Origin: Candidatus Saccharimonadales bacterium
GTDB taxonomy: Bacteria; Patescibacteriota; Saccharimonadia; Saccharimonadales; UBA4665
Assembly (NCBI GenBank): GCA_038238095.1
Contig: JBBRXZ010000001.1
Coordinates: forward strand, 1-55,961
Direction: 5' to 3'
Length of the DNA: 55,961 nt
How positions within the stretch are numbered: the first letter of the stretch is position 1; every line of letters starts with the position of its first letter. Positions 2,658 to 55,961 of the stretch are shown piece after piece. The position numbers and the translations under genes were made by a program. Under the pieces are notes generated by a model. That model searched no databases. It had not been told where the DNA came from and saw only the letters and a program-made list of their open reading frames with translations.

Positions 2658-4135
2658 AAATGCAAATATCAAAGTCTGAATACATGATGTTTCTTAAGCA
2701 CCCTGCTTGGTTGTGGCTTAAGAAGCACGATAAGGCAAAGCTTCCGCCAGTAGATGATAACACTCAGGCTATATTTGATGCTGGCAATCTTTTTGAAAGT
2801 TATGCCGAGCAACTCTTTCCCGATGGAGTAAAGATTGGGTTTAATGATTATAACGAGTATCTAAGTTTACCTGAACGTACCTCTAAAGCGTTAAGTGACG
2901 GAGCTAAAACAATCTTTCAAGGCCGGTTCGAGTATGACCAACTAACATTCATTTGCGACGTAATTCAAATTGTAGATACAAATGTGGTTGACCTCATTGA
3001 GATTAAATCCAGTACGAAGGCAAAAGCTGACCACGAATTTGATTTAGCGTTTCAGATGGTCGTGCTTGAAAATTGCGGATATGAAGTTCGCAACATCTCA
3101 GTCGTACATGTGAATAATCAGTTTGTAAGAAATGGTGAAGTGAAAGCCAGCGACATTACTGCAACCACAGACGTTAGCGAAGCCGTGAAATCTAAGAGAG
3201 ATTTAACAAAGCAACATATTGAGCAAGCTCTTAAAGTGGCGAACTCACAGACAATACCCGACATATCGTCTTCGCATGCTAGACTTGGGTCTTTTAATGA
3301 ATGGGTGGACATCTATAGGGGTTTGAAGCCCGTTGAACCTGAAAGCATCTATGACCTGTGTGTTGTTGGTGCGGAGCGAGTCGGTAAGCTTGAAAAGCTT
3401 AGAATTACCAAAATCAGCGATATTCCTGACGATTTTGAGCTTAGTGACAAACAGAAACTGCAAGTTAAAGCCACCAAGCTAAACCAGTTAATCCTTGAAA
3501 AGTACAAGATCAAAGAATATCTTGATTCATTCACGTTCCCACTTTATTTCTTTGATTACGAAACACTGGCAAGCATCGTGCCATATTTTGACGGCTTAAA
3601 GCCATATCAGCAATTGGCCTTCCAATACTCGCTTCACATTTTAGATAGTCCAGATGCAGAGCTAAGGCATGTTGAATATTTGCATCGTGAAAACTCTAAC
3701 CCTGCTGGACCATTAAGCAAAACTTTACAATCACAAATTGGGGATAGCGGATCTGTGATTACATGGAACATGAGCTTCGAGAAAAACTGCAACACACTGC
3801 TTGGGTCTATCGCATCAGAATACGCTGACTTTTACGAAAAGCTGAACGAGAGAATTGTGGATCTCATGATTCCTTTTTCAAAAGGTTGGTATGCTCATAA
3901 AGATTTCTATGGCAGTGCTTCAATTAAAAACGTATTGCCTGTAGTAGTGCCCGAACTTTCCTACAAGGCATTAGGAATACAGGAAGGTGGTTCTGCTCAG
4001 AGGTTATGGATGGATGCTGTGCTTGATGGCAAACGAGACGACCAAAAAGAACAGATTCTTGGTGACTTAGTCGAGTATTGCGGTCTAGACACACTCGCGA
4101 TGGTTGAAATCTACAAGAAACTTAGGAGTCTCTAG
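2654..4135 (+). CDS. Two-domain nuclease-like protein: N-terminal PD-(D/E)xK (Cas4/RecB-like) + C-terminal DEDDy exonuclease-like region (DUF2779-type)
   Basis: N-terminal CDVIQIV...DLIEIKSS...FQMVVLENCGY (D / ExK / QxxxY). C-terminal YFFDYET, WNMSFE, YCGLD resemble Exo I/II/III. PYQQLAFQYSLH recalls DUF2779 proteins (from memory). ATGA overlap with the helicase stop. Confidence 0.6.
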   Translation: MKMQISKSEYMMFLKHPAWLWLKKHDKAKLPPVDDNTQAIFDAGNLFESYAEQLFPDGVKIGFNDYNEYLSLPERTSKALSDGAKTIFQGRFEYDQLTFICDVIQIVDTNVVDLIEIKSSTKAKADHEFDLAFQMVVLENCGYEVRNISVVHVNNQFVRNGEVKASDITATTDVSEAVKSKRDLTKQHIEQALKVANSQTIPDISSSHARLGSFNEWVDIYRGLKPVEPESIYDLCVVGAERVGKLEKLRITKISDIPDDFELSDKQKLQVKATKLNQLILEKYKIKEYLDSFTFPLYFFDYETLASIVPYFDGLKPYQQLAFQYSLHILDSPDAELRHVEYLHRENSNPAGPLSKTLQSQIGDSGSVITWNMSFEKNCNTLLGSIASEYADFYEKLNERIVDLMIPFSKGWYAHKDFYGSASIKNVLPVVVPELSYKALGIQEGGSAQRLWMDAVLDGKRDDQKEQILGDLVEYCGLDTLAMVEIYKKLRSL

Positions 4136-6555: not shown

Positions 6556-7089
6556 ATGGCCAAGAAATCCATTACCTATGCCTTTATTGATAGTCAAAAT
6601 CTCAACCTAGGTGTTAAAAGTGCCGGCTGGACGCTGGACTTTCGCAAGTTTCGACTGTATCTCAAGAATAAGTATGGCGTGGAAAAAGCATACCTATTCA
6701 TAGGCCAAATGGTTGGCCAAGAGTCACTCTACGATCGTTTGCAAAACATGGGTTATCATCTGATCTTTAAGCCCACTACCGAGTATAAAGTGGCGGGCAA
6801 GACTGTAGTCAAAGGCAACGTGGACGCTGAACTCGTGCTATACGCTGCCGCTAAAGTCATCAATGAATACCATAAGGCTATTATCGTGACCGGCGACGGC
6901 GATTTTCATTGTCTGGTGGAATATTTGAAAGAACAGGATAAGTTACTGCACGTCATGGTGCCAAATGACAAATTTTCCAAACTGCTGCGACGGTTCACCA
7001 AGGACATTGTCAGAATCAACCCTCTCAGACCAAAATTACAATACACGCCAACTAAAAAGACCAGGAGTAGCGGTCGGTCGAAACCTTAG
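6556..7089 (+). CDS. NYN-domain (LabA/DUF88-like, PIN-like RNase fold) protein
   Basis: N-terminal AFIDSQNL, central acidic DAELV, and IVTGDGDFHCLVEYL are typical of NYN/LabA proteins. Confidence 0.7.
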   Translation: MAKKSITYAFIDSQNLNLGVKSAGWTLDFRKFRLYLKNKYGVEKAYLFIGQMVGQESLYDRLQNMGYHLIFKPTTEYKVAGKTVVKGNVDAELVLYAAAKVINEYHKAIIVTGDGDFHCLVEYLKEQDKLLHVMVPNDKFSKLLRRFTKDIVRINPLRPKLQYTPTKKTRSSGRSKP

Positions 7090-7192
7090 GCCTGCCTGGT
7101 CATGGTGATACTTGCAGTATAGCAAAAATTGACACCTTAGGCAATAGCCATTGGCTATCAATGCCACATACCTAGTTTATACTAGCAAGGAA

Positions 7193-7276
7193 GGGCCAGT
7201 AGTGTCTTGAGCTCACCGCTGAGAAAGTCAGAGCTATCAATTTCTTTCTCCAACTCATCCATGAACCCCTGCCAAT
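7193..7276. repeat. Direct repeat copy 2 (partner of 5893..5976); truncated gene 3' fragment on the minus strand
   Basis: Minus frame gives (stop)TNWQGFMDELEKEIDSSDFLSGELKTLLALPC-stop. An in-frame TAA lies two codons before the W. Confidence 0.75.
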
Positions 7277-7285
7277 TCGTTTATT

Positions 7286-7969
7286 ATGAAACACAAATCT
7301 CACTCCATAATTTCTAGAGTAAAGATATACCTTATTAAATACCGGAAAAGCTTGGCAATAGTAAGTTGCCTGGCAGTTTTATTTCTAATTGCATTCCTAA
7401 TCTTCTGTTATATGCTGGTTTCCTCGTATGGAAAATATATATTTGACTTCCCTGACACTGCCAGTATCAAGAAAACACACGTCTCAGTCGGTTTAGTGCT
7501 TGGAGCTGGCATCACCAAAAACGGTAAGCCATTCCGCGAGCTGCAATCGCGGCTCGATATAGCCGCTGATTCATTGAAGAAAGGCTATGTTAGAAAATTG
7601 CTACTTTCCGGCGATAACCGGTTCAAGCGCTACGATGAACCCGCTGCAATGGAAAACTATCTAGTGCATACTAAGCACATCTCCAAAAATAAGCTGCAGG
7701 TCGATGACGGCGGCCGAAGCACTTATGAATCATGCGAGCGCGTTTCCAAGGTTTTTGAAGTTAAGAAAATAATTATATTCAGCGCAAAATCACACCTGCC
7801 CCGGGCGATTTATGTCTGCCGGCACTTTGGAATTGAAGCCTACGGCATCCCGAGCAAAGTTGAAGCAAACAATAGCACACGCCGCGAAATACTGGCCCGG
7901 GCCAAAGCCATTGTCAACATCTACATATACGGCGAAAAAACCGTTTTAGGGAATCCCATTAAGCTATGA
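7286..7969 (+). CDS. sanA: SanA/YdcF (DUF218) family membrane protein
   Basis: N-terminal TM helix. LLLSGDNRFKRYDEPAAMENYL, SHLPRAIYVCRHFGIEAYGIPS and REILARAKAIVNIYI align with remembered E. coli SanA. Confidence 0.75.
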   Translation: MKHKSHSIISRVKIYLIKYRKSLAIVSCLAVLFLIAFLIFCYMLVSSYGKYIFDFPDTASIKKTHVSVGLVLGAGITKNGKPFRELQSRLDIAADSLKKGYVRKLLLSGDNRFKRYDEPAAMENYLVHTKHISKNKLQVDDGGRSTYESCERVSKVFEVKKIIIFSAKSHLPRAIYVCRHFGIEAYGIPSKVEANNSTRREILARAKAIVNIYIYGEKTVLGNPIKL

Positions 7970-14069: not shown

Positions 14070-15086
14070 TTATGGCCTCAGACCGACGGCTTTTTGGACT
14101 TCATGAAGTTTGCGGCCGGATATTTCCCGCATTGCCTGCTCGCTGGCTTCCAGCTTGCTAAAAATCGCTGTTTCATCGACTTTTGCCAGTTTGACCTGGA
14201 AGTCAGACAAAAATTTACCGATTTTGTCGGCTACGGCAGTTTTAAGAGGTCCGTACTGTGCCTGGCCAATAAATTCATCAGCATGCCCGCCCATCAGTTT
14301 TAAAATATCGAGCAAATTGCTGACACCCGGCTGCTTCTCGTAATCGTAGTGCACTCTGCCCAGGCTATCGGTTTCGGCACTCATAATCTTTTTCTTGGTA
14401 GTGTCCGGACTATCTGTCAAAAAGATAACGCCTTTACCCGACTCATCACTTTTGCTCATCTTTTTGGTCGGATCTTGTAGGTCACGTACACGCAATCCTT
14501 GGTCTTTGCCAAAGAACTCATGCTGATCTTTGACAGCTTTTGGCACTGTGAATAAATCACCAAACCTCTTATTAATTCTTACTGCTATGTCTCTTGTGAA
14601 CTCCAGATGCTGCGTTTGGTCGTCTCCTACAGGCACATACTCCGTATCATATAGCAATATATCGACTGCCATAAGCACAGGGTAATTAAACAAGCCGAGG
14701 CTAATACGATCAGCATCTAGTCTGGATGATTTATCTTTAAATTGTGTCATACGACTCATTTCACCAAAACCAGTAAAGCAATCAAGGATCCATGTCATTT
14801 CACTATGGGCCGGGATATAACTCTGACGATAAATGAAAACATCATTGTGGTCTATTGGCAGTCCAGCAGCCACACACACCTTAAGATTCTGCATGATGGA
14901 CGTTTGCAAATCGGCATGCTCTATAGGGGTAGTAAAACTATGCAAGTCTGGGATGAACAGATTAATTTGGTACTCACCAGCGCGCTGTTTGGCCATATCG
15001 ACTATTGGCAGCAACGCACCAAGATAGTTTCCCAAGTGTAAATCGTTATTAGCCCGCAGGCCAGTCAAAATTACTGGTTTACTCAT
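14070..15086 (-). CDS. trpS: Tryptophan--tRNA ligase
   Basis: TGLRANNDLHLGNYLGA (HIGH-type), KMSKS, size 338 aa. Confidence 0.9.
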   Translation of the reverse strand: MSKPVILTGLRANNDLHLGNYLGALLPIVDMAKQRAGEYQINLFIPDLHSFTTPIEHADLQTSIMQNLKVCVAAGLPIDHNDVFIYRQSYIPAHSEMTWILDCFTGFGEMSRMTQFKDKSSRLDADRISLGLFNYPVLMAVDILLYDTEYVPVGDDQTQHLEFTRDIAVRINKRFGDLFTVPKAVKDQHEFFGKDQGLRVRDLQDPTKKMSKSDESGKGVIFLTDSPDTTKKKIMSAETDSLGRVHYDYEKQPGVSNLLDILKLMGGHADEFIGQAQYGPLKTAVADKIGKFLSDFQVKLAKVDETAIFSKLEASEQAMREISGRKLHEVQKAVGLRP

Positions 15087-18143: not shown

Positions 18144-18982
18144 GACTTACTGCAAAAACCAAAATTTGTATGGTAATCGGCGATCCTGTGGAACATTCAC
18201 TTGGACCGCAAAAGTATAATACCGTCTATGAGAAACTGGGCATTGATAATGAATATGTCTACGTAGCCTGCAAGGTCAACATTACAGATATAGCTGATTG
18301 TATACGTGGCGTAAGGGCTATGGGCATAAGAGGTATAGGCTGTACGATGCCCCACAAAATTGAAGTTATAAAATACTTGGACAAGCTGGATCCGATAGCC
18401 GAAAAAATTGGTGCGGTAAACACTGTGGTTAATGATAGCGGTGTTCTTACAGGTCATAATACTGATTGGTTAGGTGCGGTCATTCCGCTTGAGCGCCTCA
18501 CTTCTCTAAATGGTAAAAATGTCGCTCTTCTAGGTGCCGGAGGCGCGGCCCGGGCGATTGTTTATGGCCTGGCCAGTCGTGGCGCAAACGTGACGATATA
18601 CAATCGAACGTTCCAGAAAGCCGAGGAGTTAGCAAAAGAAACCGGTACAAAAGTTGGTTCATCCGAGACATTGAAAGACATACAAGGTATGGATATTATT
18701 ATTAATGCCACGTCGGTGGGAATGCAGCCTAATGAAGACGCGACACCATTAGACCAGAAATATATTACAAATAGGCATATAGTCCTAGATGCGGTCTATG
18801 TACCTTATGAAACCCGATTGCTGCAGGAAGCTAAAAAATGCAATGCCCGGATCATACATGGCACTGAAATGTTGCTGCATCAGGGCATTGCCCAGTTTAA
18901 GCTATACACAGGCCATGATGTGCCCGAAGATATGATGAGAGACGTCATATTACAATTCTTGCCGCCTTCAAGGAAAAACTGA
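18140..18982 (+). CDS. aroE: Shikimate dehydrogenase
   Basis: IGDPVEHSLGPQ, GCTMPHK, NTDWLG, LGAGGAARA. Confidence 0.85.
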   Translation: MRLTAKTKICMVIGDPVEHSLGPQKYNTVYEKLGIDNEYVYVACKVNITDIADCIRGVRAMGIRGIGCTMPHKIEVIKYLDKLDPIAEKIGAVNTVVNDSGVLTGHNTDWLGAVIPLERLTSLNGKNVALLGAGGAARAIVYGLASRGANVTIYNRTFQKAEELAKETGTKVGSSETLKDIQGMDIIINATSVGMQPNEDATPLDQKYITNRHIVLDAVYVPYETRLLQEAKKCNARIIHGTEMLLHQGIAQFKLYTGHDVPEDMMRDVILQFLPPSRKN

Positions 18983-19662
18983 TGTCACCTAAATATTGTC
19001 TGCCGATTATAAAAAGCCAAAAATCCGAAGTATTGGAAGATATTGACTCTAGCCAGAACGAATACAGTTATTTTGAAGTGTGGCTGGATTATATTGATGA
19101 CCTGGACGAGGCTTTTATAAGACAGCTGGTTGAACTTTTACACGACAAATTAATTTTGTTATTCCGCAGGCAGAATCTGGAAACTATAAAAATGAGCCTG
19201 GAACAACGATTTACCATTCTTGATTTGCTTAAAGATGCTGAAACGCTGATCGATCTAGATGTAAGTGTTCAGGCAGATGAGCTGGATCATATAAAGAAGA
19301 ATGACTTATCGATCAAAACCATAGCTTCCTATCATAACTACCACGAGACACCGGCCACGGCACAGTTTAAAACAATTATTGGTATAATGGAGAGGTATCA
19401 GCCGAGCATTTATAAACTCGCCACATTGTGCAACAGTCACGATGACGCTTTAAGGCTTTTGGCACAATTACTTGAGCTCAAATCTCAGGGTAAGCGCGTG
19501 ATTATTGTTGGTATGGGTAATAATGGTATGGCTACCAGGATTCTTGGAACTTTGTGGGGTAATGAAATGGCTTTTGCCCCCAAGTCCATAGCAGAACAAT
19601 CAGCGCCAGGTCAGCTAACCAGAAATCAGCTGGAAACAATACTAACGGAGTTAAGGGGTTAA
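18982..19662 (+). CDS. aroD: 3-dehydroquinate dehydratase, type I
   Basis: FEVWLDY (the usual E-x-R-x-D reads E-x-W-x-D here), SYHNYHETP, lysine in SIYKLATL. Position between aroE and aroC. Confidence 0.7.
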
Positions 19663-22409: not shown

Positions 22410-23105
22410 TTACTCCTCTTCACTTATGGCCAGTTTTAATAAAAATACTGTTTCGTCCCTGAGCTTGGCGCGCGCCCAATCTTTTTGGGCATCATTCAGA
22501 AATTCACCCAGCCCATCAAGGATGTGTTTATTGTCCATTTTTTCGAGCAGCGCAATGCATTTTAACAATACTTCTTTGAGTGGCATATCGGCTCGCTGCT
22601 CGACAATGACTCGATTTATTGCCCAGCCTTGCTTAAAGAAGCTGTAGACATCAAAAACATCGCGGCTGGTCTTGCCAATTCGCTCAACCATCGCCATCAG
22701 CTTGTTGGCGAACATGTCCTCTTTAGTCATGACCAACATGGATATGCCGAGGAGATTCTTAACCTCATATTTAGAACCGAAATTACGGCGATTGACCTCA
22801 ACTTTTATTTTTTGCGCTCCGGGTGTGTACGAAACTACGCCCAATAAACTAAAATGTTTAGCTCTCGCATACTCTACTGTTCCATAGGCAGAAATAATTT
22901 TTTGAAGTTTATCGAACACCTCTGCCTCTTTACTCGTATCCAACAGATCAAAATCCAAATCAACCGATCGACGATTGAGACCATAAAACAAAAGCGCTGC
23001 CGTACCACCCTTAAAGCCAAGACATGAGGCGATCGAAGTATCTGTATAGATGTCTTTAAGTATCTGAAGCAGTATACTTTTATGCTTGGCGTAGTCTGAT
23101 GTCAT
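22410..23105 (-). CDS. AbiEii/AbiGii-family nucleotidyltransferase toxin
   Basis: FKGGTAALLFYGLNRRSVDLDFD is characteristic of AbiEii. 4-nt overlap with the upstream AbiEi-like gene. Confidence 0.8.
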   Translation of the reverse strand: MTSDYAKHKSILLQILKDIYTDTSIASCLGFKGGTAALLFYGLNRRSVDLDFDLLDTSKEAEVFDKLQKIISAYGTVEYARAKHFSLLGVVSYTPGAQKIKVEVNRRNFGSKYEVKNLLGISMLVMTKEDMFANKLMAMVERIGKTSRDVFDVYSFFKQGWAINRVIVEQRADMPLKEVLLKCIALLEKMDNKHILDGLGEFLNDAQKDWARAKLRDETVFLLKLAISEEE

Positions 23106-23704
23106 GTGGCAATACCACTTTTGTAATGCTTAAAGTACCCCTTGGCTTGTTTAACCAGCCTTTGATTGTTATAAACCGGCAATATTTCGAAAATTTTATT
23201 CCAATCCAAGCTATCTAGATTATCAAAGTGATAGTCTTTGCTCACATACAACCTATCTAAAAAGGCTCTTTCCTTAGTTGCCCTAGCATACTCACCTTGA
23301 TGTTCTACTCCTGTAGTGTCGCTTAGGACGTAGTTTTTCATCCGAATGAAAGATATCTTTTGGCCGTCTACTTGGATGTCTCGATTAATATATGACGCTA
23401 CGAAAATAGTACTATAATACTGAAAGTTAATACCTTGTTCAGTTAAAACGGTTTCAAAACTTATATAAGCCGGCGTATATATCCGGGCAGCGAGTTCAAA
23501 GCGATTGTAGTTTTTATCTTTAGCATAAAAACCGCGCCGAGCCCTCACAAGTTTTCCGGCCTTTGCGTAGCTATTTAAGCGGTTACTGACTGTGTCCTCT
23601 CTTGTTTCGCCCCACAACAAAGCCACGTCTTTGGTAGAAAAGACGGTTTTAGGAGAACGTAACAAGGTCTCCAAATATTCACCTTTGGTGGGCTTTTTAT
23701 CCAT
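23102..23704 (-). CDS. AbiEi-family (type IV TA) antitoxin / transcriptional regulator
   Basis: N-terminal winged-HTH-like VFSTKDVALLW...LNSYAKAGKLVRARRGFY, then PAYISFETVL. Paired with the AbiEii gene. Confidence 0.75.
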   Translation of the reverse strand: MDKKPTKGEYLETLLRSPKTVFSTKDVALLWGETREDTVSNRLNSYAKAGKLVRARRGFYAKDKNYNRFELAARIYTPAYISFETVLTEQGINFQYYSTIFVASYINRDIQVDGQKISFIRMKNYVLSDTTGVEHQGEYARATKERAFLDRLYVSKDYHFDNLDSLDWNKIFEILPVYNNQRLVKQAKGYFKHYKSGIAT

Positions 23705-32358: not shown

Positions 32359-33102
32359 CTATTTGGCGCTAACTAAGGACTGGACGTAAGCCAGCGTTCC
32401 TTTTACACCTGAAGATTGAAACCGCTTTATCACCGCACTGCCTACCACGGCAATATCACCTATTGCCAGCACTTCTTTTACGTCTTTCGCGGAGTTAACC
32501 CCAAAGCCAACCATTATTTTTGCGTTAGATAAATTTTTAATCCGAACGACTAACTGCTTTAGCTGCTCCGCCGGAGCATATTTATTACCGGTTATACCCT
32601 TAGTGCTCGTAACATAAATAGTGGGCGGGTTCAGTGCCAACAGAGCTTGCATACGATCTGCGACCATGCCCGGGCTTAAGACTGGCAGAAGTTCCAGCTT
32701 GAATTCTTTGCTCGACTTTCTGAGGTCTGAAAATTCCTTGCTGTCGTATGGCAGATCCGGAATGATGAGACCCTTTGCCTGGCACTCCGCAACTTGTTTG
32801 CAAAATTCTTTTAGGCCAAAGTGACTTAGTTTCTGCAGGTAACTCATTATATAGAGGTCGGTAGTTAAACCTTCCCGGCGGGCTTTTTTGATCAGCTCAA
32901 AGCTGGCAGCAGTGGTCATGCCGTTCTGTAGAGCCACGTCATTAGCGTGCATAATCGTTTCCCCGTCGGCAATCGGGTCCGAAAAAGGTATTTGTACTTC
33001 TATGGCCGAGACGCCGCAGTCTTGCATACCGAGCATTAGCTGCAAACACTCTTCTTGGCTGGGATAGCCGGCGACTACATGGCACATTAGCATTCTATGC
33101 AT
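32359..33102 (-). CDS. trpA: Tryptophan synthase alpha chain
   Basis: IEVQIPFSDPIADG, VGFGV. 8-nt overlap with trpB. Confidence 0.85.
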   Translation of the reverse strand: MHRMLMCHVVAGYPSQEECLQLMLGMQDCGVSAIEVQIPFSDPIADGETIMHANDVALQNGMTTAASFELIKKARREGLTTDLYIMSYLQKLSHFGLKEFCKQVAECQAKGLIIPDLPYDSKEFSDLRKSSKEFKLELLPVLSPGMVADRMQALLALNPPTIYVTSTKGITGNKYAPAEQLKQLVVRIKNLSNAKIMVGFGVNSAKDVKEVLAIGDIAVVGSAVIKRFQSSGVKGTLAYVQSLVSAK

Positions 33103-50819: not shown

Positions 50820-51460
50820 TACTTAGCTTCCTTACTAAGCCAGGCTGTGGTTGAATTGAGAGCGGTCTGGTTAAAAACGATACTATCGGCATTTAGCACG
50901 TCAAATACGTTAACGTACTGGGCGCTGACTAGCTTAATGCCCGGAATATTGCGGCTGGCACGAATAAGTTCCGGCGCCTTTTGCTCCAGCACGATCAAAG
51001 TGCTACGGCCCACTTCAAGCTTAGCCAGCAATTTACTCAGTTCAGCGGTCTTACCGTCTTTAGAAATGATGTCTTCGATAATAATAAGCTTGCCGGCCTC
51101 GTTGGCCAGGCTTAGAGCCTGACGGATGGCCAGTCGTTTGGCCTTAATATTCATTTGTTTAGAGTAGTTCTCCTGGCCGGTTGGACCAAAAGTAATGCCG
51201 CCACCACGCCAAATTGGAACCCGTGAAGAGCCGAAACGGGCCCGGCCCGTGCCCTTTTGCTTCCAGGGCTTCTTACCGCCGCCCCGGACCAGACCCCGGG
51301 TTTTTGTAACAGCCGAATTTTTGCGGCCACTGGCCAGATACAGGTTGTAAGCATTTTTAAGAAGTTCATGATTACCGGGCGATACGTCAAAGACGGCTTT
51401 GTCCAGCTTAACCGGCGCCGTGGCTTTAGTACCACTCTTAGTATAGGTAGGAGTAGCCAT
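50819..51460 (-). CDS. rplD: 50S ribosomal protein L4
   Basis: KTRGLVRGGGKKPWKQKGTGRAR.GS.R.P.WRGGG..FGP. Confidence 0.95.
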   Translation of the reverse strand: MATPTYTKSGTKATAPVKLDKAVFDVSPGNHELLKNAYNLYLASGRKNSAVTKTRGLVRGGGKKPWKQKGTGRARFGSSRVPIWRGGGITFGPTGQENYSKQMNIKAKRLAIRQALSLANEAGKLIIIEDIISKDGKTAELSKLLAKLEVGRSTLIVLEQKAPELIRASRNIPGIKLVSAQYVNVFDVLNADSIVFNQTALNSTTAWLSKEAK

Positions 51461-52074
51461 TATTCAGCACCTTTCACGAGGAGAATACCTTTTTTAGGCC
51501 CGGGCACTGCACCGGTGATGCCAATGACACCCATTTCGATGTCAATTAGTGCAACTTTCAGGTTCCGAACAGTGATTTGATCATGGCCCAACTGACCGGC
51601 CATACGTGTGCCTTTAAAGATATGCTGGGGATACATTGAGCCGATAGAGCCTGCCTTGCGGGTGTTGCCCTTGCCGCCATGAGTTTTACGCTGACGATGA
51701 AAATTGTGGCGGCGAATGGTGCCGGCCCAGCCTTTGCCTTTAGTGATGCCGGTGACATGCACTGTATCGCCTATATTAAAAACGTCGGCGCTGATTTTGG
51801 CGCCGACGCTGTGTTCCTCTGGGATTTCATTAAGACGGAATTCGCGAATAATCTTTGGCATCACCTTGGCCGCCTTTACATGACCAGCCACGCTCTTACT
51901 CAGCTTTTTGGCAACTTCCGTACCCACCTGGACCGCCGTATAGCCATCTTTTTCAATGGTCTTATGGTGCAATACAGTATGCTCGCCCACAGCCAGCAAG
52001 GTAATAGCCTGCACAGCGCCATCTTCTGTTATGGTGCTGGTCATACCGACTTTTCGGGTAATTAGGGCTTTCAT
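51460..52074 (-). CDS. rplC: 50S ribosomal protein L3
   Basis: GMTS....DG...ITLL, VTGITKGKGWAGTIRRHNF......HG....R..GSIG. Confidence 0.95.
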   Translation of the reverse strand: MKALITRKVGMTSTITEDGAVQAITLLAVGEHTVLHHKTIEKDGYTAVQVGTEVAKKLSKSVAGHVKAAKVMPKIIREFRLNEIPEEHSVGAKISADVFNIGDTVHVTGITKGKGWAGTIRRHNFHRQRKTHGGKGNTRKAGSIGSMYPQHIFKGTRMAGQLGHDQITVRNLKVALIDIEMGVIGITGAVPGPKKGILLVKGAE

Positions 52075-52194
52075 AAATTACTTTCCGTATCCACGGTGAC
52101 ATAAAAACACTTGGCTGCGAGTGGTTTCTACCTCTGTTATTGGCAGACCTACGTACGCTAACCAAGTCCAAGTCTTTCCGATATACCATACTAG

Positions 52195-52222
52195 AGTATC
52201 ACGCCGGAATTACCCCTGTCAA
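52195..52222 (-). promoter_or_regulatory. Candidate promoter TTGACA-16 nt-GATACT about 115 nt upstream of rplC
   Basis: Minus strand: TTGACAggggtaattccggcgtGATACT, spacer counted by hand. Confidence 0.35.
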
Positions 52223-52283
52223 GCTGTTGCAAATTATACACTCAAGCAGTCATATAACAATAGACTGATTTCTCTCCTAAATC

Positions 52284-52676
52284 TTATGGCTCGCCGTTTC
52301 GGCGGATATCTTCAGCAATTTTTTCAGCCGCCTTTTTGGCCTCCGGAGCGACTTGTTTAGCATCACTCTTATTTTTAGCAAGAGTCTCTTTAGTATTAGC
52401 TTTGAGTCTGCTCATATTGTTTTTTAGGCTGGCTTTGGTCCGGGTAGTAGTAGCCGAGCTTTGGTCTGCGGCCTTGCCGGCGGTTTCACTTAGCTCATCA
52501 GCTGCCTGCTTGGTACGATTTTTTAGCATATCTGCGCGCCGCTTCAGGTCACTTCTTGCCTGATCCCCTGTCTTAGGCGTAAACATCATGGCCATAAAGG
52601 CTCCGACTGACGCGGCCAGCGCTACCACACCTAATACTTGACCTGGATATTCTTTAATTGAATGTGAATGCGACAT
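52284..52676 (-). CDS. YtxH-domain-like small membrane-anchored protein
   Basis: N-terminal hydrophobic helix followed by FTPKTGDQARSDLKRR (compare the YtxH APKSGKETR motif), then a Lys/Ala-rich helical tail. AAGAGGAG RBS 8 nt upstream. Confidence 0.55.
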   Translation of the reverse strand: MSHSHSIKEYPGQVLGVVALAASVGAFMAMMFTPKTGDQARSDLKRRADMLKNRTKQAADELSETAGKAADQSSATTTRTKASLKNNMSRLKANTKETLAKNKSDAKQVAPEAKKAAEKIAEDIRRNGEP

Positions 52677-52772
52677 AATGGTAAAACTCCTCTTATTAAA
52701 TTAAATAACCACCTTTAAATACTAGAGAAGTTTAGAGCAAGTGTATATGAAATAGCTTACATTCGCGTAAAG

Positions 52773-54758
52773 CTAGCTTAAATCTTCCTTTTGACTTGAA
52801 TGCTTTTTAACTGAATTTTGGATAATCTTTTCAGTAACACGCTTTATTACTCTACGGTTTTTCCTTTGTTCGACCAAATTCCGTGTATTGGCATTATCGT
52901 GCAACATAATATCCACAATCTCGCTAAGATTAAACTTAGCTGTTCTCTGTTTTCTTTTAAGACCCATATTTGCCTCGCTTGCATCTTTGTTTGAAGAAGA
53001 TGAGAAAACATTGAAGACAGACTGAATCTGGTTACGTGAATAACTATGCTCGGGACTAAAATGTTCTAAAAATGTATCAACAATTTCTTGGGTCTTTTCA
53101 GCTAACTGATCTATTCGTTGGCGCTTCTTTAGATTAGTACGGCGTTCTTGTGTTATCTCCTCGCTTCTGTCATCTTCATGTGTTTCATTTGCCTCGGATA
53201 GCTCTTGCGAAAATTCAGGAGAAACTCCCTCTTGAGTAGGTGGATAAACACTTGACGTGAGATCGTCGCTCGGCTCGGCATCTTCAGGCAACTTTATTAG
53301 CCAGCCTTCTTTTGTAGAGATAGGCCATATGACCTCTCCAAACTGGTCAACCAGCACTTGGTCGATATGTTCTGGTATTCCCTTGAAAAGGGTAACATTC
53401 ATTTCCCACCTGGAACGTATAAGGCGATTCATGAACTGCCTCTTTGTAGGGTCTTCAAACTGTCTATAAATATATTCTACGAAGCCTACCTCTGGATTTT
53501 CTTTATCTAAGCAGTCTATCAGATCCAAGATTCGATCTTCATTCTCAAAAACAGCGTGAATTTCGCGCAATGATCGCTCCCGATAGTCCAGTTTCTCGTA
53601 GTCGCTCTTCAATCCGGATAAGTCTGGTTTGTATACTTCCATACTGTCAAGCATCTCATGGCTTACTTCGGGTTTATTGTAGGCTCGCAGAACACCATTT
53701 AGTGAAGACAATTTCAATCCGACTAGGTAGAGGCTGCTAAGCTTTACGCCAGCAATTTGGGCTTCTGCTTGAGTTTGTTCCGTAACCTCTGCTACGTGTT
53801 CATCAAGATCCAGACGAGATGAACCTGGCGGTAGTTCAATCCGTTCCTTTTTGCTTCTGGGGATATGCACCTCCAGCTCGAAGCCTGGGGCAACAGAATA
53901 TCGCGAAGCGTTACCTGTTTTTTGGTTAGTAATAATCAATGGTTGTCGTCTAAAGCTTATACCCGTTAACCATTTTCGTATACTGGTCATCGCATTTCTA
54001 TCGAATGGCTTATGATCGCCATGGATAGCTGTCCATATTTGGTGTGGAGAAAGGCTTCGATTCTGGCTTTCAGCAATAAAGATCAAGGCGCTGCGTCTCT
54101 CTTCAGAGTAATCGTGATGGCTATCGCTAGAGCGTTTGGAGTAAGGGAATATTTTACCTTCCCGACCTACCCGTACTGCTTTGTCGCGAAAAGTCAGGGT
54201 AACTGACTGGACTAAGGTTTCGCCTGCTTCCGGCTCTTCAATTACTAACTTTTTTGGCTTAGCCTCGCCCCCCCCCTTACGGACAGGCGCTTTTGGCTCA
54301 GTAGGCTCAGCGCTTGTTAGAGTGGGCAGTTCAATGGCGCGCTTGACCGCCAATTTTCCACTTTGCGCTAACAAAGATAAAAATGACTGAGCTTCTGCGG
54401 TCACAGCACCATACCGCTCATAAAAGGTCGCCACACGCTCCAATCGGCCTTGCAAGCTTTCTTCCGTATCTTTCAATTCCTCTGCCGACAAAATAGTTCT
54501 TAGAGGTTCTAGCTGATCGAGGCCTCGAACTGCCGATTGCCCAATCTTAGCCAACTCGATTTGCAAATCTGTTGATCCGGCCACTTCTGCTTTTTGTTCA
54601 GCCACTCGCTCTAATGCCCGCTCATAACTAGGCCTAAGCTGGGGAACAAAATCATCACTTTGTAGCTGGACTACCAGCACAGCTTCCTGACCCTCTAGCT
54701 GGGTTAAACGTTGGTATGCTGGCAAGGACTCAAAAGGGTCTGCCTCAAAACTACTCAT
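52773..54758 (-). CDS. Hypothetical 661-aa protein, no recognisable domain (orphan) inside the S10 operon
   Basis: Uninterrupted 1986-nt ORF on the same strand as the ribosomal genes. More AT-rich than its neighbours by spot count and has its own promoter-like sequence. Confidence 0.55.
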   Translation of the reverse strand: MSSFEADPFESLPAYQRLTQLEGQEAVLVVQLQSDDFVPQLRPSYERALERVAEQKAEVAGSTDLQIELAKIGQSAVRGLDQLEPLRTILSAEELKDTEESLQGRLERVATFYERYGAVTAEAQSFLSLLAQSGKLAVKRAIELPTLTSAEPTEPKAPVRKGGGEAKPKKLVIEEPEAGETLVQSVTLTFRDKAVRVGREGKIFPYSKRSSDSHHDYSEERRSALIFIAESQNRSLSPHQIWTAIHGDHKPFDRNAMTSIRKWLTGISFRRQPLIITNQKTGNASRYSVAPGFELEVHIPRSKKERIELPPGSSRLDLDEHVAEVTEQTQAEAQIAGVKLSSLYLVGLKLSSLNGVLRAYNKPEVSHEMLDSMEVYKPDLSGLKSDYEKLDYRERSLREIHAVFENEDRILDLIDCLDKENPEVGFVEYIYRQFEDPTKRQFMNRLIRSRWEMNVTLFKGIPEHIDQVLVDQFGEVIWPISTKEGWLIKLPEDAEPSDDLTSSVYPPTQEGVSPEFSQELSEANETHEDDRSEEITQERRTNLKKRQRIDQLAEKTQEIVDTFLEHFSPEHSYSRNQIQSVFNVFSSSSNKDASEANMGLKRKQRTAKFNLSEIVDIMLHDNANTRNLVEQRKNRRVIKRVTEKIIQNSVKKHSSQKEDLS

Positions 54759-54770
54759 AATTAAGTTTAG

Positions 54771-54799
54771 AGTATACCTCTTAGTAGAATAATTTGCAA
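54771..54799 (-). promoter_or_regulatory. Sigma70-like promoter TTGCAA-17 nt-TATACT; the -10 ends 12 nt before the 661-aa ORF ATG
   Basis: Minus strand: TTGCAAattattctactaagaggTATACTctaaacttaattATG. Confidence 0.4.
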
Positions 54800-54840
54800 C
54801 TTTATTTGATTATTTATTGGGGCTAACACTTTATTTGATT
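54799..54840. repeat. Two exact 13-nt direct repeats ACTTTATTTGATT (54799..54811 and 54828..54840), start-to-start 29 bp
   Basis: Read directly. Copy 1 abuts the candidate -35 element. Confidence 0.7.
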
Positions 54841-55112
54841 CTACAACCTTTTATAATGTTTTTAGGTGGTTGGTAGGCTTCTATTTTTTGAAAAGTGTCT
54901 CTTGGGCTTAGAGCTTGCTTCTGCTTTAGGTAATTCTCCCTGTTAGCGCTCACTCGATTACCCTAGACTGGGCTGCTACTGCTATTCCGGAGATTTAGAT
55001 TGTAGCCTTTCGGTAAAGGCAGCTTGATAGCCGTTATAAACTCCGGTCCCTTGAAGTATAATCTTACTACTCAATATTTTTTGTTCACTTTTCATTTATA
55101 ACTATAAACTAC

Positions 55113-55442
55113 TTACATCTTAATTTCGACGTCGCAACCGGCTGGTAGGGAGAGGTTCATAAGGCTGTCGATGGTCTTAGGCGTAGGCTCAAAAACATCA
55201 ATAAGCCGTTTATGCACACGCATTTCAAATTGTTCGCGGCCCTTTTTATAAACATGCGGACTTTTGACCACCGTGAAGGTACTGCGGCGTGTCGGCAGTG
55301 GAATCGGCCCGGCCAATGAGGCACCGGTACGCAATGCCGTATCAATGATCTGTTTAGCAGCCTGATCGATAATTTTATGGTCATAAGCCTTAAGGCGAAT
55401 TCGTATCCGCTGCTTGATATCCGGTTGTTTAGCATCTGCCAT
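55113..55442 (-). CDS. rpsJ: 30S ribosomal protein S10
   Basis: [28 protein letters not shown]...GPIPLPT, HKRLIDV..P. Position after tuf. Confidence 0.95.
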
Positions 55443-55528
55443 AGGTGTTATTCCTTCCTGAGCTTACCACTCAGCCCGCTGTAACATCTCTTTATCTTTC
55501 AAAAGCGACTTTTAGTCAGCAAGATTAA

Positions 55529-55961
55529 TTATTTGACGACTTTGGTGACGACGCCGGCGCCGACGGTGCGGCCGCCTTCGCGGATGGCAAATCTCAGGCC
55601 CTGCTCCATAGCAATGGGGGCAAGTAATTTTACCTTAAATGTTATGGTGTCGCCGGGCATGACCATTTCTTTGTCCGCTGGCAGTTCGACTTCGCCGGTT
55701 ACGTCGGTGGTGCGAAAATAGAACTGTGGCTTGTAGCCCTTAAAGAATGGCGTGTGGCGGCCGCCCTCTTCTTTAGTCAAGATATAAACTTCAGAATCAA
55801 ACTCGGTATGCGGCGTGATGGTGCCGGGCTTGGCCAGAACCTGGCCGCGTTCAATATCATCGCGCTCAATACCCCGAAGCAGAATACCGGCGTTATCGCC
55901 GGCCTGACCCTGGTCAAGGCTCTTTTTGAAAGCTTCAATGCCGGTTACGACACTCTTGGTA
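55529..55961 (-). CDS. tuf: Elongation factor Tu, C-terminal part only (5' end beyond the window)
   Basis: The frame is open to the window edge: [73 protein letters not shown]...VVTKVVK. Confidence 0.95.

Follow-up and report, generated by a model that had tools for sequence, protein, structure and literature searches.

A variable gene slot between rpsJ and rplC of Saccharimonadales can hold a member of a predicted winged-helix protein family and ends at a conserved promoter with a putative attenuator leader

In most bacteria, rpsJ, the gene of ribosomal protein S10, directly adjoins rplC, the gene of L3, as a rule, and in E. coli the ribosomal protein L4 causes premature termination through a hairpin and U-run in the leader of the S10 operon. 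The genomes of Saccharibacteria and other Patescibacteria are very small, and how these bacteria regulate their genes is poorly understood. We analysed the rpsJ-to-rplC interval of a Candidatus Saccharimonadales bacterium (UBA4665) in a stretch of 55,961 nucleotides (nt) from GenBank assembly GCA_038238095.1 (contig JBBRXZ010000001.1, positions 1-55,961), here called the window; coordinates refer to the window unless one of the loci fetched from related genomes (L001-L095) is named. The two genes are separated here by a non-coding spacer, an open reading frame (ORF) of 661 amino acids (aa), a gene for a YtxH protein and a leader, and every one of these elements, together with both flanking genes, lies on the minus strand. 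We read this interval as a lineage-typical slot between two ribosomal units, which holds a protein of a predicted winged-helix family along with a YtxH protein and which ends at an ancestral promoter with a putative attenuator leader, and we put the probability of this reading at about 0.6.

A survey of its distribution reports the E. coli S10 leader from Gammaproteobacteria only (Fu et al., 2013, PMC3616713), and the sole leader candidate for rplC-rplD in the 2020 survey of ribosomal-protein leaders (r-leaders), in which neither Saccharibacteria nor the candidate phyla radiation (CPR) has a motif, is one from Archaeoglobi, the L4 r-leader candidate (Eckert and Weinberg, 2020, PMC7247131). Like the E. 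coli S10 operon, the window locus carries a long hairpin and a U-run in the 5' leader of an operon encoding L3 and L4, and the genes follow in the order rplC-rplD-rplW-rplB-rpsS and onward. Unlike in E. coli, the leader precedes rplC and not rpsJ, rpsJ lies outside the unit, and no Rfam family resembles the leader by sequence or covariance model. The Archaeoglobi candidate and that of the window are alike in being structured leader candidates which immediately precede rplC-rplD-rplW-rplB; the former is archaeal, however, and the window has no Rfam match at E<=1, which is telling only if the archaeal motif is in Rfam 15.

The separation of rpsJ from rplC is the norm of this lineage. The window rplC was compared with 80 species-representative loci (65-87% identity), nearly all of them labelled Saccharibacteria or Saccharimonadales, the window rpsJ is 75-97% identical to that of 74 Saccharimonadales loci, and the gap statistics were taken from the 74 relatives in which the fetched locus includes both. 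Direct adjacency of the two genes was found in 0/74 relatives; in all 74 the gap is at least 172 nt long, its maximum is 4410 nt and its median 689 nt (<300 nt in 12 relatives, 300-800 nt in 31, 800-2000 nt in 23, and >2000 nt in 8). The initial annotation had taken the window arrangement for an insertion that split the S10 operon, but synteny at tuf-rpsJ-rplC shows that the split is general among relatives, with variable gap content, and that it was not caused by the genes which now lie in the gap. Its view that the two genes are parts of separate units in this genome is supported, as is that of a promoter of rplC's own, and we infer that the S10 operon of Saccharimonadales consists of two units, tuf-rpsJ and rplC onward. 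The minimum spacing of ~172 nt is accounted for by the promoter and leader element.

The last ~145 nt upstream of rplC (51460-52074, minus strand; Pfam Ribosomal_L3), the gene that opens the unit of rplC, rplD, rplW, rplB and onward, can be aligned across ~77 relatives with conserved length, and their order is constant: a box TGTAGAATTTGCAAC, the -35 TTGACA, an extended -10, a hairpin, a U-run, ~25 nt and the rplC start. In the window, the promoter region (52193-52240, minus strand), delimited by near-invariant columns in 77 relatives and a consensus scan, comprises the upstream box TGTATAATTTGCAAC, the -35 TTGACA (52222-52217) and the extended -10 TGnTACTCT (52201-52193); the whole rplC leader of 209 nt (52075-52283, minus strand) contains TTGACA-16-GATACT by consensus scan. 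The near-invariant columns of the -10 (T40, G41, T43, A44 and T48) read TGnTAnnnT in the 77 relatives, and the window version is TGATACTCT. This promoter had been described as a fresh one; it is real but not fresh, given its conservation in ~77 relatives. Promoter and leader are also present where rpsJ is only ~180 nt away, and an example of the conserved pair in a relative is L003:7835-7978.

Downstream of the promoter lies a structured leader RNA (52103-52171, minus strand) supported by covariation and a covariance model, namely an interrupted hairpin of ~65-70 nt (CUUGG...CCAAG) with a conserved loop and bulge, AACAGRGG and GAAACC, followed by UUUUU. RNAalifold gave 19 pairs, and 12 of these show compensatory changes. 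In the alignment, 91.8% of cells are paired versus 32-50% with the partners slid, double changes occupy 135 cells versus 13-36 when slid, and the observed pairing was reached by none of 500 shuffles (0/500). The U-run after the closing CCAAG stem is UUUUU in most sequences, with two columns invariant and three nearly so (68-77 sequences). The covariance model has a single match in the window, at the position given above (81 bits), and it also matches upstream of rplC in the more distant genomes L082 and L092; a loose pattern of the leader is present in 74/95 loci, and the window sequence itself folds into the same structure. No Rfam 15 match to the rplC leader was found, either at the gathering score or at E<=1.

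A covarying structure in the 5' untranslated region (UTR), placed downstream of a conserved promoter and ahead of rplC, with a terminator-like hairpin and U-run, is what characterises a ribosomal-protein leader, and by analogy the element is likely to be a new, Saccharibacteria-specific leader or attenuator of this kind. The hairpin and U-run would most likely terminate read-through from the slot, and the leader is probably also an attenuator by which an operon-encoded ribosomal protein feeds back on the expression of the rplC operon. Such feedback is suggested because the layout of hairpin and U-run matches the E. coli S10 attenuator, and with the same analogy in mind our best guess for the first candidate ligand is L4. 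All relatives share the split, the promoter and the leader, so these predate the present genes of the gap; judged by sequence conservation, both the promoter and the leader of rplC are ancestral.

The stretch from the rpsJ stop codon to the rplC promoter would then be a permissive slot, the content of which turns over fast between species. It usually contains one to five accessory genes in the direction of the ribosomal genes; among gap ORFs of >=80 aa, 92 are co-directional with the ribosomal genes versus 14 opposite. Recurrent residents are a ~92-aa family that has two predicted transmembrane (TM) helices but matches nothing in Pfam, a NUDIX hydrolase found in 13 loci (Pfam E 5e-16), a ~110-aa family with 10 ORFs spread over 8 loci, and YtxH in 6 loci when the window is included, alongside a lipoprotein-like pair and many singletons. 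In the 25 relatives that carry it, the ~92-aa two-TM family directly precedes the rplC promoter (e.g., L024:7563-7838 and L065:7531-7818; gaps of L019-L080).

The 661-aa ORF of the window slot (52773-54758, minus strand) is intact and belongs to a family recognised by HMMER homology. In an exhaustive HMMER search of 1.84 billion representatives, the family comprised 99 clusters at E<=1e-3 and 33 at E<=1e-30, both counts including the query and thus leaving 98 other clusters at the former threshold, of which 80 have a length of 546-1001 aa, the majority falling at 550-750 aa. The initial annotation had called the protein an orphan, a description that does not survive these 98 homologous clusters, many of them at the same locus, while its statement that no domain can be recognised holds at the sequence level (Pfam, NCBIfam). 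Neither the 661-aa protein nor the sampled family members matched Pfam, NCBIfam, PADLOC or PHROGs, and among 50 family members no significant Pfam domain (0/50) and no Response_reg (receiver) domain (0/50) was found; the protein itself has no TM segment, no signal peptide and no receiver domain. Word-index searches with the full protein, a 50-sequence family profile and a domain-2 profile returned nothing besides the query, and the sole name that any source gives to family members is 'hypothetical protein'. The window protein and L008:5749-7755 are 36% identical over the full length. Pairwise identity in the family is 24-35% for all pairs, which is near saturation, and is highest in the closest species pair, with conserved columns distributed over all four predicted domains. 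The family, known so far only from gene contexts of the Saccharibacteria type, consists of undescribed, cytoplasmic proteins of ~650 residues.

The fold was predicted by AlphaFold2 with a 50-sequence family alignment, a single-sequence model being poor (predicted local distance difference test, pLDDT, 43) and set aside. The model has a mean pLDDT of 82.4, with 403 residues >=90, and consists of four folded domains (aa 10-135, 180-300, 333-490 and 531-660) and disordered linkers (138-179, 304-330 and 494-532), the last of which is the acidic linker already noticed in the initial annotation. The winged-helix-like middle that had been suspected from the letters was borne out by the AlphaFold2 model and by Foldseek. 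Against PDB, Foldseek returned almost only winged-helix DNA-binding domains of the OmpR/PhoB type (ArlR, CovR, PhoP, ToxR, BaeR, AfsR), with a probability of up to 1.00 (0.9-1.0 for the first five) and a TM score, normalised by target, of 0.5-0.67 for domain 2 (53859-54221, minus strand; pLDDT 86-98), the values for CovR (3rjp) being 1.00 and 0.67. DSSP assigns strands to aa 184-190, 194-197 and 203-205, helices to 218-230, 238-246 and 254-266, and strands to 275-277, 287-289 and 293-298; this order of a beta sheet, three helices with a helix-turn-helix, and a beta-hairpin wing is that of the OmpR/PhoB fold in the predicted structure. Domain 2 is also the best-conserved part of the family, in which G198, W263 and Y287 are nearly invariant.

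The other three domains have no known relative. Domain 1 (54354-54731, minus strand; pLDDT 94-98) is a five-helix bundle without a PDB sequence match, domain 3 (53289-53762, minus strand) is helical with a beta hairpin at its end (pLDDT mostly 76-95 over aa 333-480 and <60 in the last ten residues), and the C-terminal domain 4 (52779-53168, minus strand; pLDDT 83-98) is helical and had insignificant PDB sequence matches only (S100-A9, E 0.27). Comparison of the four domains by hhalign showed no internal duplication, so the domains are not repeats of one another. The family profile had only insignificant matches among PDB sequences, Foldseek against viral structures returned nothing, and no OmpR-family gene was found as a profile partner among eight candidate window ORFs. 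A kleisin/MukF-like protein was considered and rejected, with a Foldseek probability of just 0.14-0.30 and a very high root-mean-square deviation.

In its predicted topology, domain 2 is the same as the DNA-binding domain of OmpR/PhoB/ToxR/SARP regulators, which are its best structural matches, and by eye the family consensus M...R.WL..LTYRR.P....NGKRG..S.Y appears to resemble the recognition helix and wing of the OmpR class. Unlike these regulators, the family lacks a receiver, a TM segment and a BTAD, its winged helix is central and flanked by three domains without known relatives, and its sequence match stays below the Pfam threshold. Going by the model, the family protein is most likely DNA-binding, either a transcription regulator or a nucleoid-type protein.

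We recovered 13 genomic contexts for the family (22-38% identity to the window protein), of which 10 lie in the tuf-rpsJ-rplC zone, one more (L091) does so probably, and two (L087 and L093) lie elsewhere. With fam for the family gene, the order is rpsJ-fam-ytxH-rplC in the window, rpsJ-99-113-NUDIX-220-fam-rplC in L008 and L095 (rplC is seen in L008 only; L095, which was found by a locus search with a two-sequence alignment, stops within fam), tuf-91-rpsJ-fam-rplC in L082-84, rpsJ-191-fam in L085/86, tuf-fam-97-rpsJ-NUDIX in L088/89, rpsJ-100-fam in L090, tuf-117-rpsJ-fam-392-95-rplC in L092 (a 1.19-Mb contig) and tuf-rpsJ-fam-rplC in L094. In L081, fam is followed directly by the rplC leader, and this locus was counted in the zone because of the leader match directly after the gene. 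The probable case, L091, reads NUDIX-cupin-fam, and of the two located elsewhere L093 reads prfA-fam-ftsEX. An old linkage of the family to the locus, with frequent loss, is plausible.

The family gene also has a promoter-like site of its own, TTGCAA-17-TATACT (54771-54799, minus strand; consensus scan). A very short or absent 5' UTR is suggested because the -10 ends 12 nt before the ATG (54758). A sigma70-like promoter with the -10 ending 8-13 nt before the start was found in 7/12 family genes versus 0.9% of random positions, these promoters having >=9/12 matches, a 17-nt spacer and TTGCAA, TTGCAT or TTGCTA as the -35; this frequency backs the initial suggestion that the large gene has its own promoter. 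As far as such motifs can tell, the family gene would be transcribed independently, probably into an mRNA with no leader or almost none. A TTGCAA core is present both in the -35 of the family gene (54792-54800, minus strand) and in the box upstream of the rplC -35 (52226-52234, minus strand; ATTTGCAAC), and this shared core may be only a promoter-like hexamer.

The second gene of the window slot, ytxH (52284-52676, minus strand), follows the 661-aa ORF after a 96-nt spacer that contains a Shine-Dalgarno sequence, AAGAGGAG, ahead of ytxH. YtxH proteins (PF12732) are small membrane-anchored general-stress proteins of Firmicutes and others. The 130-aa window protein matches Pfam YtxH over aa 19-84 with 47.1 bits (E 3.3e-12) against a curated cut-off of 37.5, which places it in the family and agrees with its earlier description as a YtxH-like membrane-anchored protein. 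It has a hydrophobic N-terminal anchor, VLGVVALAASVGAFMAMMF, at aa 14-32 and then a long helical part rich in Lys and Ala, an arrangement alike to the N-terminal anchor and long amphipathic helical part of PF12732, and unlike in the described cases the window gene lies inside a ribosomal gene cluster. Homologues detectable at BLAST level occur in the same gap of L031, L033, L035, L037 and L056. The ytxH gene is probably co-transcribed with the family gene, and its product would be a membrane-anchored stress protein.

On its upstream side, the slot begins after rpsJ (55113-55442, minus strand; Pfam Ribosomal_S10, E 5.5e-35), the final gene of the upstream tuf-rpsJ unit, with an A+T-rich, non-coding spacer of 354 nt (54759-55112, minus strand) that is not conserved. 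No decayed gene or RNA was found in this spacer by Rfam including E<=1, a homologue search and a folding test; it has no homologous ORF, no blastn or tblastx similarity to relatives, and an unremarkable folding (z-score -1.38). The anatomy given in the initial annotation, from rpsJ through the 354-nt stretch, the 661-aa ORF, YtxH and the leader to rplC, was found in place throughout, at the coordinates reported here and on the minus strand. The arrangement is backed by Logan contigs from an independent sediment-metagenome run, which cover 51000-54830 and then 54801-55461, and a soil metagenome holds the 661-aa gene too, with the frame intact and one synonymous and one conservative (Ala-to-Thr) change. 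At the 3' end of tuf (55482-55647), contig depth is ~750x in X1 and ~340x in X2, with many loose ends; this jump in depth stems from the highly conserved tuf genes of other members of the community, which cross-map here, and is not a feature of the genome.

The interval might instead be a recent, horizontally acquired mobile or foreign island of 3 kb whose insertion broke up a formerly intact S10 operon and supplied rplC with a new promoter. Such a view draws on the closest relatives by rplC (L001-L007, 82-87% identity), whose gaps hold different single ORFs and neither the family gene nor ytxH, on the 354-nt spacer, which is unique to the window genome, and on a G+C content of 44.5% in the 661-aa gene versus 49-56% in the neighbouring ribosomal-protein genes. 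This last difference, to which the initial annotation had pointed, is true but fails as a sign of foreign origin, since the G+C of the interval genes (44.5% and 48.7%) equals the average (46.0% for the window, with a gene mean of 47.1 +/- 4.7%); the other non-ribosomal window genes have 37-50% G+C, and it is the ribosomal genes that are the G+C-rich outliers. An integrative mobile element or genomic island was rejected on this typical G+C and on further grounds: the two ORFs of the interval that have homologues are neither integrase, transposase nor relaxase (Pfam, NCBIfam, PADLOC, PHROGs), with no PADLOC or PHROGs match to the 661-aa protein, the flanks show no direct or inverted repeats beyond short, chance-level ones, and there is no tRNA near the interval, the window tRNAs lying at 9.1-9.9 kb only. 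The split, the promoter and the leader, being present in all relatives, are older than the gap genes, and homologues of 24-36% identity occur at the same locus in lineages with an rplC just 52-65% identical, all of which makes a recent island quite improbable. That the 661-aa ORF is a decaying or spurious frame without function is hardly credible and already contradicted. Its bare name, the absence of a Pfam domain and the three empty word-index searches would fit such a frame, but the 98 clusters of full-length homologues of similar size, the columns conserved across all four domains, the confident alignment-based model and the frame, which is unbroken in a second metagenome as well, do not.

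An unlikely alternative is that the family is a lineage-specific partner of the translation or transcription machinery, such as a ribosome assembly or ribosome-associated factor or a partner of S10/NusE, so that its adjacency to rpsJ would be a sign of joint regulation with the ribosome. The ligand of a winged-helix domain can be RNA or protein, the place beside rpsJ has been kept over deep divergence in 10/13 contexts, one member located elsewhere adjoins prfA, a translation gene, and related genomes have other unexplained small ORFs inside ribosomal clusters. Against this stand a promoter of the gene's own in place of translational coupling to rpsJ, the absence of the gene from the gap in 73/74 relatives, and a very fast evolution (24-35% identity) unlike that of core machinery. 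Position alone is weak evidence here, because the slot also holds unrelated genes (NUDIX, a lipoprotein-like ORF, YtxH).

Several points weigh against our own reading of a lineage-typical slot with a winged-helix family gene. Within the gap, the family is present in only 1/74 relatives (L008), and vertical retention with many losses is inseparable from repeated transfer because identity in the family is near saturation. The winged-helix assignment rests on predicted structure: the Foldseek matches have E-values of 0.1-1, owing to the use of the whole 661-aa model as query, the gathering score of Pfam Trans_reg_C (PF00486) is not reached and the window protein does not match it, sub-threshold matches to it occur in 2/34 family members (best E 0.0025), and the domain-2 profile found no OmpR relative among PDB sequences. 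The main activity of the protein may lie elsewhere because three of its four domains are without known relatives. Finally, the sequencing runs that hold the window sequence are DNA only, with no RNA runs among them.

A bolder version, which we regard as a long shot, would make the family a Saccharibacteria-specific regulator of the adjacent translation-gene cluster, with its winged helix binding the TGTAGAATTTGCAAC box upstream of the rplC -35. This version is weakened because the box is universal and the family gene at the locus is not.

Some further observations were made in the window and its relatives. The rplW gene (L23; 50241-50819, minus strand) encodes 192 aa with a C-terminal extension of ~95 aa rich in Lys, Ala and Glu; L23 of relatives is mostly 109-201 aa long, so the variable tail is a lineage feature, with the window copy at the long end. 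In L092, unannotated ORFs lie in ribosomal clusters, namely 135 aa between rpsG and fusA (2893-3300 of that locus), 117 aa between tuf and rpsJ (7089-7442) and 109 aa between rplB and rpsS (14435-14764), and similar small ORFs occur between tuf and rpsJ in L082, L090 and L095. Elsewhere in the window, a gene for an AbiEii-type nucleotidyltransferase toxin (Pfam E 2.2e-15) and a 200-aa ORF without a Pfam match overlap by 4 nt (22410-23105 and 23102-23704, both minus strand) and are likely a type IV toxin-antitoxin pair. The window also encodes a type I 3-dehydroquinase (18982-19662, plus strand) and a tryptophan synthase alpha chain (32359-33102, minus strand), from which it follows that this environmental Saccharimonadales bacterium keeps at least part of aromatic amino-acid biosynthesis.

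In essence, the locus overturns no principle and is a lineage-specific variant of known themes. The split S10 operon with its fast-turnover slot bears on how operons are predicted and on how ribosomal-gene synteny serves the quality control of metagenome-assembled genomes. The rplC leader is strongly covarying and absent from Rfam. The family, with ~100 clusters, no name, no Pfam entry, a predicted fold of the DNA-binding type, a conserved address and a promoter of its own, is a concrete candidate regulator for bacteria of which only a small number of regulators have been recognised. If the family does regulate the adjacent cluster, the transcription of a ribosomal-protein operon would be coupled to a signal read by three novel domains and, together with the attenuator RNA, this would give these ultrasmall epibiotic bacteria a lineage-specific control of ribosome synthesis in two layers.

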